From contig CM119371.1 in NCBI GenBank assembly GCA_051294905.1, positions 15,998,001 through 16,062,000 on the forward strand: a DNA stretch of 64,000 nt, read 5' to 3'. Positions 21,571 through 39,829 of this stretch are shown here, piece by piece; position 1 is the stretch's first letter; the number at the start of each line of letters is the position of its first letter. The notes beneath the pieces were generated by a model. That model did not search any database and was not told the origin of the DNA. It saw nothing but the letters and a program-made list of their open reading frames with translations. The translations under genes were made by a program, and so were the position numbers. Source of the stretch: Botryllus schlosseri. Taxonomy: Eukaryota.

Positions 21571-22309
21571 ACGGACTTCTTCGCTGTAGTAATCCATGCT
21601 TCAATGCTTGACATAATTCACGATGATCGTATAACTCACTTATACAACAGGGCCCCCTGGTGTTAACCTATATTTAACAGCAATCAATACCAGATTGCGT
21701 TCGCACTGAAAGGATTGTCCTTACATCCGGAACGATGCGGGATATAAATTCCACAACGATGACTAAGCTACAAATCACCGGATTGCTTGTAGTATTTCAT
21801 TGCGGTAGATATAATTTCTCCCACTTTATTAAGTGTGGCGAGTTGGTTCAATGCGGAGCTTCAATAACCGTTCTTATGTTGTGAAACAAGATCCGCGGAA
21901 ACACGAATGGCGATGGACTATATTCGAAGAGTTCGAGTTTACAGTTGAGCATCTTGTATTCCCCACAACGCATACGCATGTCCAACACCGCGTCACCACA
22001 TCAGATGGGATAAAAATAAGTCAACTTTATCGTCATGTCCAGCAGTTTAGAACTAATCAATCAATCAATTGTTGTATTTTTGCCAATGTCATTGTTTGTA
22101 TACAAAGGCGTTTCTAAAATAGAGCCCTATGATTCGTAATGTTAAGGATTATGTATAAAGTTAATATTGGAGCATTCCACTTAACTGGATGGATTTGGAG
22201 GTAACCCTTTGTGGTAATTTGATTACCCCGTCCGCAACCGATACAAGGTTTGAATTCGAATCGCGATCCATAGTGTGTTAGTAGTAGGATGGGATTCGTT
22301 TGTTACCGT

Positions 22310-22452
22310 CCAATCAGAGAGCGCCACGTCATCCTAATTGCCACGCCCATTTTCATGCCCTAAGGGTACATTCATCTGCTACGTCATCTGTGCCACATCA
22401 TCAAACGCCACGCCTATAGTGCCACATCATCCATCCATTGCTATATCATCGC
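22310..22452 (+). promoter_or_regulatory. Subterminal motif cluster (CCAATCAG plus about 7 GCCAC(G/A)TCATC-like repeats); mirror copy at 37693-37835
   Basis: GCCACGTCATC, GCCACGCCCAT, GCTACGTCATC, GCCACATCATC, GCCACGCCTAT, GCCACATCATC, GCTATATCATC within 150 bp; function is inferred. Confidence 0.5.
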
Positions 22453-36000: not shown

Positions 36001-37865
36001 TGATAAGTTTAATTTGCCAAATTAGCGTGTTCAAATCAGGCCTGTCGCCAACATAGTGATGTCGCATTAGCCCTAAATACACATAATAGAATATAAAGGA
36101 AAAGTATCATCTAACGTATAATGAATGTTATCTATTTCTCGGAAGCAAGTTATTATCAAAACATAGTGGTCAAAATTATCGCAGAGCAATACCGATTTGC
36201 GTAAATTCCGTTATGCGTCTGACTACGTTACTAGGGATTATGTAGTTAGTTAAGGAATTAGGAGTCCTATATTCCCAATCGGTATGGAACAACATCAAAA
36301 TCATCACAAAGCAATATCGACTTTTGCGTGAATTCTGCTATGCGTTTTACTACGGTAGTATGCGCAGCTGCTTACAGGTGTCCAGACGTGGACTTTCTAC
36401 TATATTCGCTCCTAACATTATAGCAGCACCCGACGCAGCTTACATTATTACGTTATAAGACGTCGGCGGCGTTTCACTGTCGGTTTATTCACCCTTATTC
36501 TAGTGACATGAAAAGGACTGAACCGTATGAAATGTGGTCACTACAAGAATCGAGCGAAAGCGCTGTTTCAATCCGTCTTGCATCGGTCACGATTAGTTTT
36601 ACTTTTCAACTAACTTGGTGTCTGTCGTTATATTCATTAGACTCGCTTTCATGCGGCTAATTTGGCACTATCATTATAACGTCGGGGATCGCGTACCTGC
36701 GGCGAAGGTGTTCGTTCTTTATATTTTGTGAAGTAGAGAGTAGTTTAAGGTTATGTTTGTCTAACCTTGACGAGTGCTATTGTCACACTCGATCACCATA
36801 TTTAAATCATGGACATCTCAATGATGTTGACTAAATTTACGGCTTCAGAACGTGCTAATTAGACCTAATCGTTATAACGCTGGGGTTCGCGTACAGGCAT
36901 CGAAAGTGTTTGTATAAATAAAGCCCTGCGAATCGCACGCCTGCGGCTATAGTTCGTTCGATTATTTTCACCTTGGGATTCGCGTATATGCTACTAAGCT
37001 GTTACGACTTTAGAAAATTCTACAAGACTATTCGGAACGCGCACATGCGAGTGATTTGTTTCCGTACCTCCGAACTGGAGAATCGCTTGCCTGCGTCTAA
37101 TGAAAATAATTCGTAAAATGTGGGGGCTGCAGAGAGCGTAACTTGTATACGTAAAATCAAGTTTAAAAATATGGAAGGATGAGTTATCTCTGACCAATAG
37201 AGTAATATAACCGCCTATAGTTTAGTGGGGTATTGCTATAATGTATATCCAAACAATCGTTGCAGACTCTGAATGTTACCTGGGTCCTTATCGCAAAAAA
37301 TCATGCATCAGAAGCGTAGGGATTCATATTATCAAGTCGCAGCGCTCAAAATCGGATTTTATATTAAGTAATTAGTGATGATGTGTAGAATTTTGATATT
37401 AATAATATTATCCGGAGAATATAGCCTTGCATAGACATCATAGTTTTCGCATTTATGTATAATCTGAATAGGAATTTAAATACATAGTCCTAAATACACA
37501 TAATAGAAAATCTGTCGATTCTAGCTAAGGTAAGATTTGACGCGGCAATCATAAGTCGTAAAATGTGGAAACTGCAGAAACCGTAACTTGTACACATAAA
37601 ATAAAGTTTAAAAAATATGGACGGATGATATTAGTCCTAAATACGCATAATACAATATCTGAGAAAAGTATCAAGATGCGGCAATCAATGCAGCGATGAT
37701 ATAGCAATGGATGGATGATGTGGCACTATAGGCGTGGCGTTTGATGATGTGGCACAGATGACGTAGCAGATGAATGTACCCTTAGGGCATGAAAATGGGC
37801 GTGGCAATTAGGATGACGTGGCGCTCTCTGATTGGACGGTAACAAACGAATCCCATCCTACTACT
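30089..37865 (-). repeat. Right arm of the giant inverted repeat
   Basis: Mirror of 22280-30055. Confidence 0.97.
34054..34311 (-). CDS. Mirror copy of the truncated Bcl-2-family (BH4-like/BH3) ORF
   Basis: Translation identical to 25834-26091. Confidence 0.6.
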   Translation of the reverse strand: MELSRVSPSITEETDEIIFEAYSLTRNFIMYKLDGSCVKVNTKAERTLRRVGDEIFERHRTVPNAVSKRLRYLHFFTFYNTLSST

Positions 37866-39829
37866 TGTGTTTGACATCCCTGATTTACAAAATAGAGGTT
37901 TCCGTGAAATGGACGTGCAAACCGACATTTTAGGACTAGATTAGGGAATCAAAGCATTCATAAAAACCGAAAAAGTGATTTGCATCAGACACCGCAGATC
38001 AGTGGCTCGCATCTCACAAGCCCCATATGATAACCATATATGCCTGTCTCAAGCGATAGCTATAGTGTCGCAATGATTACGAAGATGGTCAACAAATTTC
38101 AAAACTGAATTTGCGTCAGAAACTTTGATGATTGATGTAGGCAAATTTTAGGTTGCTGAATCCGATCATGTGCTCAGAATTGCTCTATCACATCAGATGT
38201 TGTTGCTGTAAATTTTGCTCAATTTCTTAATTTGATCAAATCTCGACTGTTGTTGGTGACATTACGGTGAGCCTATATAGCAGCAAAAGTTCAACTATTG
38301 TTCTTAAAATCATCTATGATGAAACCTGGGCTGGGCTGTTGTAGAATAGAACGACTGAGTTTTCGGTGAGCTTTAATCCAGTGGTTTTCAATTTTCTCTG
38401 AATCAGGACCTCTTTCCGACTTTTGGCGAAACCATTTTTACTTGGGGCAGTTTTCATCCTTATACATCGTTATGGTTTTAAACATTGTATTTCATAACTC
38501 CATACTTAACTTAGTTCCATCCGTTATCGTTAAACAGCAGACTTGATCGGTCAATGCATTTTGTGACAGCACACTGCTCCTTCGTAGAACGTAAAAGTTT
38601 GTAAACAATGAACATATGATATTGTTCGTATATAATGTAGGACAAAATTATGCACTCTGGTACATTACCCAAATGTGTGATTCTATAAGGTTATTAAATA
38701 CATTAAAAAATCCATAGAATGTCTGCTTCTCTAAGGAATCAAAATGCTGATCATGGTAACTTAAAGGCGCATGGATATCATCCCGATTGTTATCCAGTTT
38801 GGATATACTGACATTTTATCGGAATCGAGGAAAGTGATTACTAGACTATTTTTCTTCTGGCTTATTTCCATGATATAAAGACCTTTTGCATTGTCTATTT
38901 TAGAAAACCAAATGAATGGAGATTGTTTATTGACACACAAAACCCTGAAGTGCGTGTAACCTCTAAACAAAAGTGACTATATGCATTGTTTCCAGGACAT
39001 TCGATTCGTTTCCACATATGACATTCTGTGACAGTATACAGTATACAGCTTTATAGAGCTATCATTACTGGGAATATAGTCTGTAAACATAAAAATCATG
39101 AACTTTGGAACGGTAGGCCTACACACCAAGTAGGCTACCCAGCATTCTTTGCAGAACCTAATATGAGCATTGGTAAATTTTTATTTATGTTTTTAAATGA
39201 TCTCGAGGACTTGTGTTTGTGTTTTGCATGAATAAACGAATCGACAGTTTTGAATCTATTAACCTTTACATTTTCATGGAGGTGTCTGACTTGCCGTAAT
39301 ATTTTAATATGCACCGGGGCAGTCGAAGTGATAACAAGTAACGCCTTACATTTCTACTCAATTACAAGTGGAAGTTGTACTTTCTAAGACATGCCAGAAC
39401 TTCTTCATGGGGAAGACGGAAACTAAAGGCCGGAAAGTACTAATTCAGTATGTGTTCAAGAATATTTGGTCGGAGGGGAGTCGCATACTTTGAGCAGCTA
39501 CCCGGAGGTTGCTACATACGAAATCGCCGGATGTGTCTTCTCGGCTGACACAAAATGAATATACTGACACTGCCCATTGGTAGAATCTTACAAAAATGTA
39601 TTCAGTTGCCTTGATTCAGGGGTATTTGACTCCTGGGTGTACTGCAGCCTTATCCTTAAACGACTTTCTAACCTTCAAAATTAAAATTGCAGGAGAAACT
39701 ATTTTGTCAACCGTCAATTGGACCCCCGGTTAAATACGACTGACCTGGAGCTAGAATTTTTTACTTTCAAAATTACTCAAGTAAGTAATTCGTATAACCG
39801 ATAGCAGACAATATATATAATAAGAAGAA

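Follow-up and report, generated by a model that had tools for sequence, protein, structure and literature searches.

In vertebrate Mavericks, also known as Polintons, the commonest end motif is 5'-(AGT)2//(ACT)2-3', the motif definition also admits (AG)3//(CT)3, and perfect target-site duplications of 6 bp are formed (Barreat and Katzourakis, 2021; PMC8097293). Intact copies measure 12,723–24,620 bp (mean 16,862 ± 1,678) and carry inverted repeats of 46–1,447 bp; protein-primed replication is expected to make use of the end repeats for jumping-back, and the narrow size range is taken to suggest a capsid constraint (PMC8097293). Here we describe an element of 15,586 bp in a window of 64,000 nt from Botryllus schlosseri (the whole stretch of DNA that was analysed: assembly GCA_051294905.1, contig CM119371.1, forward-strand positions 15,998,001 to 16,062,000; coordinates given without a contig name count from its first base). 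The element resembles these Mavericks in its (AGT)2//(ACT)2 ends, its perfect 6-bp duplication and a length within the published range, a likeness that an original prediction from the bare sequence had pointed out. Unlike them, it has an inverted repeat that makes up the whole element, with 7,771 nt per arm and more than five times the published maximum, and it is devoid of polymerase, integrase, ATPase, protease, and capsid genes. It belongs to a mobile family of gene-less, whole-length palindromes with Maverick-type ends and arms that change in lockstep, and this family is real and unusual.

On self-comparison, the left arm (22280..30050, plus strand) and the right arm (30095..37865, minus strand), each of 7,771 nt, are 100% complementary, the right arm being the exact reverse complement of the left, and only 44 nt (30051..30094) lie between them. 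The first 5 nt of this centre (TCTTA) pair with its nt 39–43 (TAAGA), so that 33 nt remain unpaired besides a 1-nt bulge; these correspond to the 33-nt loop described in the original prediction. The element starts with AGTAGT (22280..22285, plus strand) and ends with the mirror motif ACTACT (37860–37865). The hexamer TGTGTT stands directly outside either terminus (22274..22279 and 37866..37871), the symmetry ends exactly at AGTAGT/ACTACT, and the left and right flanks are unlike each other. Near-identical inverted arms, termini, duplication, and differing flanks had all been predicted and are all present in the sequence. No further pieces of the element occur elsewhere in the 64-kb window, which contains no N letters.

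A paralogue of the 780 nt that precede the element lies 69 kb downstream on this contig and matches them at 92% identity. Apart from this and a second paralogue at 78% identity, the left flank is single-copy. Over 321 aligned nt of the 92% paralogue, the left flank runs through one TGTGTT into the right flank without interruption. Because this paralogous segment joins both flanks across a single TGTGTT, the 15,586-bp palindrome entered an intact site as one unit and duplicated six bases, which is what the original prediction had read from the duplication. The empty site with its single TGTGTT, which had been expected in another haplotype, was found for the window copy in a paralogue and not in an allele. 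Other palindromic copies with 6-bp duplications of their own had also been anticipated: the duplications are perfect and mutually different in 12 of the 14 copies with both ends, and in one copy five of the six bases match. A copy on C8 (C8:19518500-19529300) has no duplication, and beyond the element end its inverted symmetry extends into the flank for at least 262 bp, at 99.7% identity. This copy has resulted either from inverted duplication at the host level or from mis-assembly. It lends some colour to the idea that the palindromes were made within the chromosome, by host inverted duplication at a break after a single-ended or ordinary element had inserted. As a general explanation this is very improbable, given that the symmetry of the window copy stops precisely at its termini, that its differing flanks are joined across one TGTGTT at the paralogous empty site, and that most copies (12 of 14) have perfect duplications.

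Regarding the insertion site, the flank at 21500–22279 is part of a segmental duplication, with paralogues at C1:16088833-16089603 (92%) and C1:15057121-15057952 (78%). In another individual, the match of one 195-nt contig to the flank breaks off at 22279, beyond which its sequence is unlike the element; the part of this contig that was read would fit an empty allele. In the best-covering sample, two flank haplotypes are found at 22115–22242, which show 0 and 8 differences over about 120 nt at depths of 6 and 11. Heterozygosity may accordingly be very high, and the insertion may be present on one haplotype only.

The extent of the family was assessed in the whole assembly. The first 421 nt of the element, used as a query, returned 887 first-look candidates, and the 40 that were scored are 95–100% identical and mostly form inverted pairs. 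A subterminal 30-mer (element positions 31–60) occurs 145 times in forward and 147 times in reverse orientation genome-wide with up to three mismatches, as compared to 0 + 0 matches of a reversed-pattern control against the 292 real ones; the family size is roughly 146 palindromic copies. The pairing statistics rest on 100 of these 292 places: 72 of them make up 36 plus/minus pairs, the other 28 are unpaired among those listed, and the length implied by the 36 pairs has a median of 15.5 kb and lies between 14 and 18 kb in 26 of them. The window copy and 11 others were read over their full or almost full length, a further two only at the ends, and three more over part of their sequence. The window arm is 92–99.5% identical to the other copies, and copies differ by up to 8%. 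Searches with a terminal 22-mer and 30-mer led to further pairs, and a copy on C9, read over its first 6 kb, is a diverged non-coding relative. An exact 25-mer of the element had 0 matches in collections of viral contigs and metagenome contigs.

Contigs of four sequencing runs from four studies, which are short and without long-range support, cover the left junction, and the terminal region is highly repeated in all four. In the best run, the summed word depth, which does not equal copy number, is about 15–160 over the flank versus 4,700–133,000 over the element, and it is high in the other three runs too. None of the sequencing runs listed as containing the sequence is an RNA run. In two runs, the word depth of the element end (22274–22900) is hundreds to thousands of times that of the flank and exceeds what the 292 assembled ends suggest. 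These data also bear on the suspicion of an assembly artefact, in which a fold-back chimeric read or collapsed arms would have produced the palindrome. Two other copies do sit on 100-N scaffold gaps with redundant sequence, and polishing could help to bring arms to 100% identity. An artefact is nonetheless scarcely credible in the face of about 146 pairs across many contigs, each with its own duplication, arm-specific substitutions and indels in several copies, a window copy that sits within a 41.8-Mb contig without N, and a terminal region that is highly repeated in the contigs of all four runs.

The two gap-bearing copies, on C5 (24 kb) and C16 (21 kb), were considered as nested palindromes arising from recurrent snap-back, and this was rejected because each holds a 100-N scaffold gap. 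Each has two centres with the same loop orientation, not mirrored, and contigs built from either flank pass through the centre into the opposite arm. They are single palindromes of about 16 kb that are represented twice across the gap by redundant contig ends, and the assembly overstates them as elements of 24 and 21 kb.

All copies in which the centre was seen share the same one. The junction, composed of CCCGCGCGC, 42–44 nt, and GCGCGCGGG, is found at 11 places, namely in the window copy and at 10 places in eight other copies. Because of this shared centre the fold-back, judged by the sequences of the copies, took place once, in an ancestor shared by copies whose present divergence reaches 8%. 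The original prediction had regarded the window copy as a fresh snap-back product; this view has to be abandoned, the window copy being instead one of about 146 palindromic copies with one centre and an apparently ancestral fold-back. The element has since then moved in palindromic form. The centre is G/T-rich and resembles telomere repeats on the minus strand. The loop is strand-asymmetric (G 32–45%, C 2–5%), each centre holds one to four TTAGG versus 0.06 expected per 44 nt, and the loop of one copy reads almost as seven degenerate TTAGGG units. The stem begins at the self-complementary GCGCGC. Together, the telomere-like tract and GCGCGC hint that the ancestral broken end bore telomeric repeats before it folded back. 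A scan against Rfam gave only a sub-threshold microRNA match on the hairpin centre (36 bits versus a threshold of 100), which was taken as spurious.

The two arms within one copy are 98.4–100% identical over kilobases, which corresponds to a difference of 0–1.6%. In the comparison of the centre-proximal 1.3 kb, the gap-duplicated copy contributed four of the 19 arm sequences. In this region, the nearest relative of an arm is its own partner in all eight copies with both arms, and partner arms are 0.0–0.7% apart versus 0.3–5.4% between copies. By this comparison, the arms of each copy evolve in concert, and because the palindrome predates the lineages, they must have been homogenised repeatedly. 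Some copies have arms that are 0.7–1.6% apart (1.6% in copy C3a), and one arm of a C13 copy has a 97-bp deletion, so that homogenisation in place is not efficient; it probably occurs during the mobile phase. The window copy is very young because its 7,771-nt arms show 0 differences. The near-identity of the arms had been attributed to either recent insertion or ongoing homogenisation, and both halves of this suggestion find support: the first in the youth of the window copy, the second in concerted evolution throughout the family.

The explanation that we favour, with guarded confidence, is a non-autonomous palindromic derivative of a Maverick that is mobilised in trans and re-symmetrised during replication. 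An ancestral linear molecule would have possessed one Maverick end and, at the other side, a broken inner end with a short telomere-like tract. This broken end would have folded back at the self-complementary GCGCGC microhomology and been copied into a palindrome, both sides of which would thereby have come to bear an end for replication and integration. From then on, the palindrome, which has no genes and would for this reason depend on a helper, may have been replicated and integrated in trans by the protein-primed polymerase and the retrovirus-like integrase of that helper. The displaced strand would be self-complementary and identical to the template ahead of the polymerase, and one arm could then be copied from its partner by a template switch. 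The displaced strand might instead snap into a hairpin in which mismatches would be repaired. After insertion, the arms would drift apart slowly. The narrow size range may point to a packaging limit. The link to a Maverick helper and the coupling of symmetrisation to replication are the best-supported inferences from these data, and they are unproven.

The coding capacity is in keeping with a gene-less, non-autonomous element. In the window arm, the longest frame starting with ATG has 85 aa, and the longest stop-to-stop frame, of 131 aa, lies in a tandem array with a period of about 202/411 bp (26143..28682; mirror 31463–34002). A Pfam scan of the 44 stop-to-stop frames of at least 45 aa in this arm found no match at E ≤ 0.01, and the absence of replication, integration, and capsid ORFs, already noted in the original prediction, holds. 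In other copies, the longest scanned frame has 183 aa and no Pfam match, the C9 copy has in addition a 185-aa frame outside the scan, and no frames of at least 200 aa exist except those of hAT type. The latter are the only frames with Pfam matches; they comprise hAT transposase frames of 525 and 416 aa (DUF4371) and, next to these, a 165-aa frame with a hAT dimerisation domain. Their location is a complex region of 36 kb between two family ends on C7, where they are present in mirror image (positions 5143–7178 and 8646–9893 of C7:14255000-14264999), and a hAT insertion seems to have been copied into both arms there. Genes for a Maverick polymerase, integrase, capsid, ATPase, or protease were found neither in the window arm nor in the scanned frames of other copies. 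What weighs against the favoured explanation is that the 44-frame scan revealed no remnant of a Maverick gene in the arm interior, so that the argument for descent from a Maverick genome is confined to the ends. Moreover, none of the 14 sampled copies and the three partly read ones is autonomous. The clustering of sizes could reflect simple inheritance from an ancestor of about 15 kb, and chromosomal gene conversion may act instead of replication-coupled re-symmetrisation, which we infer. As the apparent nested palindromes are scaffold-gap artefacts, they are no evidence for recurrent snap-back.

The helper, too, counts among the difficulties. The original prediction had envisaged an autonomous Polinton with the same terminus, and none was found by searches of this genome with the profiles PF03175, PF00770, and PF00136. 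PF03175 had no match at E ≤ 0.001; at E ≤ 10 it had nine matches, the best of which is the host DNA polymerase delta, an intronless frame of 1,075 aa. PF00770 (adenain-type protease) had no match in the genome, and PF00136 retrieved only host-type B-family polymerases. Five ORFs of 774–1,212 aa (C13:14452325, C3:35162972, C4:12067515, C4:12088842, and C3:9632060) match only positions 56–174 (or 56–216) of the PF03175 profile, which is the exonuclease part only, at 17–18 bits, and have no PF00136 match. Two of these ORFs are separated by 21.3 kb and share one orientation. At such scores, the five ORFs may be diverged protein-primed polymerases and serve as leads only. An rve search returned 1,389 candidates; all 150 that were scored matched, and by hand comparison none of these 150 lies inside any listed pair interval. 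Since rve and host B-family polymerases were found, the profile search is not blind in this genome. A helper is to be expected, given how young the window copy is; it would be unrecognised, unassembled, or exogenous.

As an aside on the polymerases of this genome, the DNA polymerase delta is encoded by one uninterrupted 1,075-aa frame (positions 683–3907 of C5:11746400-11750400), and a polymerase-alpha-like match lies in a 1,455-aa frame (C11:12224684-12225976). The coding sequence of a further B-family polymerase, on C12, is distributed over many exons. That replicative polymerases should lack introns is odd in an animal genome.

The same results have to be considered with regard to a foldback-type cut-and-paste transposon of another or unknown superfamily, which would produce 6-bp duplications, keep its inverted arms alike by gene conversion between them in the chromosome, and carry AGTAGT ends by coincidence. 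Such a transposon would need neither the protein-primed polymerase nor the adenain-type protease that the searches failed to find. Its arms would be non-coding and contain a tandem array, here of 2.5 kb, as is the case in foldback elements. The single ancestral fold-back also fits, ongoing snap-back not being needed. However, the sole transposase seen is of the hAT type, a superfamily with 8-bp duplications, and in some copies the divergence between the arms reaches 1.6%. The combination of (AGT)2//(ACT)2 ends and perfect 6-bp duplications is the published signature of Mavericks (PMC8097293). Ginger2, the other integrase-type group with 6-bp targets, is described as having TGTNR termini and RTATAY targets (PMC2836005) and does not fit: the termini here are AGTAGT, and none of 13 duplications conforms to RTATAY. 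On balance, a foldback-type transposon appears unlikely.

Further clues come from the anatomy of the ends. The AGTAGT/ACTACT termini are present in 14 of 14 copies checked. They are followed by a hypervariable box (element positions 7–22; 22286..22301, plus strand; mirror 37844–37859), of which at least eight versions exist among 14 copies and two single ends. Both ends of one copy share the same box, and single-base differences between them occur only in copies C3a and C1b. From about position 23 inward the sequence is conserved; this subterminal region (22302..22700, plus strand; mirror 37445–37843) is 96–100% identical over the 40 scored matches. The copy on C2 is only 0.5% away from the window copy in the centre-proximal 1.3 kb, yet it has a different box, and the box of the window copy is also found in copies 5% away and in the still more diverged C9 copy. 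As close relatives have different boxes and distant lineages share one, the box moves between lineages and does not change by base-by-base mutation. This suggests an exchange of the ends through recombination or template switching, which may serve to fit them to different helpers. The motif GCCAC[AG][TC]C occurs five times in a single orientation at element positions 44–149 (22323..22428, plus strand; mirror 37717–37822) and is absent from both strands of the rest of the 7,771-nt arm. These motifs are candidate protein-binding sites.

A more far-reaching possibility, which we put forward tentatively and with some doubt, is that the copies are endogenised snap-back defective genomes and the family a still-active Maverick satellite. 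It would exist as extrachromosomal, protein-capped linear or hairpin DNA, be re-symmetrised in each round, swap its 16-nt boxes with those of helpers, be limited to about 15–16 kb by a capsid, and be integrated by the helper. With respect to snap-back parentage, only the ends of the element look viral, and no gene remnant was seen inside the arm. If the satellite reading is true, the family would provide the first record from nature that Mavericks replicate by protein-primed strand displacement and are packaged under a size limit. The family might then also interfere with the helper or feed small-RNA silencing through 7.8-kb hairpin transcripts.

Apart from the palindrome, the region of the insertion contains two BTB-BACK-Kelch genes (window positions 3770–5356, plus strand, and 12516–14249, minus strand).

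Replication and virion formation of Mavericks have so far been argued from gene content and not observed. A large, young, and gene-less palindrome family with exact Maverick ends is a concrete test object. It predicts protein-linked linear DNA of 15.6 kb or hairpin DNA of 7.8 kb, a helper with matching terminal boxes, and a size ceiling. The family also demonstrates that about 150 perfect palindromes, with arms of 7.8 kb around a centre of 44 nt, can survive in a germ line. As such palindromes are unstable in well-studied genomes, their persistence is unexpected. For those who build genomes, the family is of practical concern because it causes scaffold gaps with duplicated sequence.

Titles and abstract openings in the literature yielded no report of a whole-length palindromic Maverick derivative, and the closest parallels come from different systems. 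Drosophila FB elements have a 9-bp duplication, and foldback arms consist of tandem subrepeats that reach the ends. The element is like these FB-like elements in its two long inverted arms, in having little or no coding capacity, and in the tandem array inside the arms. It is unlike them in that its ends are unique sequence and not subrepeats, and in its 6-bp duplication, arms of about 7.8 kb, 44-nt centre, and Maverick-type ends. To our knowledge, snap-back or copy-back defective viral genomes do not exist as heritable integrated families. The element shares with them full self-complementarity, a small centre, the same end twice, and the lack of coding capacity. Theirs arise anew in each infection, whereas the family described here goes back to one ancestral event followed by about 146 germ-line insertions. 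A review defines snap-back genomes as highly symmetric palindromes (PMC13506859).

Viruses and phages with linear DNA offer further points of comparison. Defective left-end DNA of adenoviruses has long inverted repeats. Incomplete adenovirus particles contain DNA from the left end, close to which the packaging signal is located (PMC5033970). In multiple displacement amplification with the phi29 polymerase, more than 85% of the rearrangements are inverted and primed at 2–21 nt of complementarity (PMC1855051). The element resembles these chimeras in its inverted junction at a short complementarity, GCGCGC at the stem-loop boundary; the chimeras are products of an in-vitro reaction of a phage enzyme, whereas the searches found no polymerase for the element. 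The rDNA palindrome of Tetrahymena, finally, is giant, has a short non-palindromic centre, and is formed at a break next to a short inverted repeat, with telomeric repeats involved. Giant size and a short centre are common to both palindromes, as would be this mode of formation and the involvement of telomeric repeats, but that of Tetrahymena is a developmentally made minichromosome, and the one described here is a transposed, multi-copy element.

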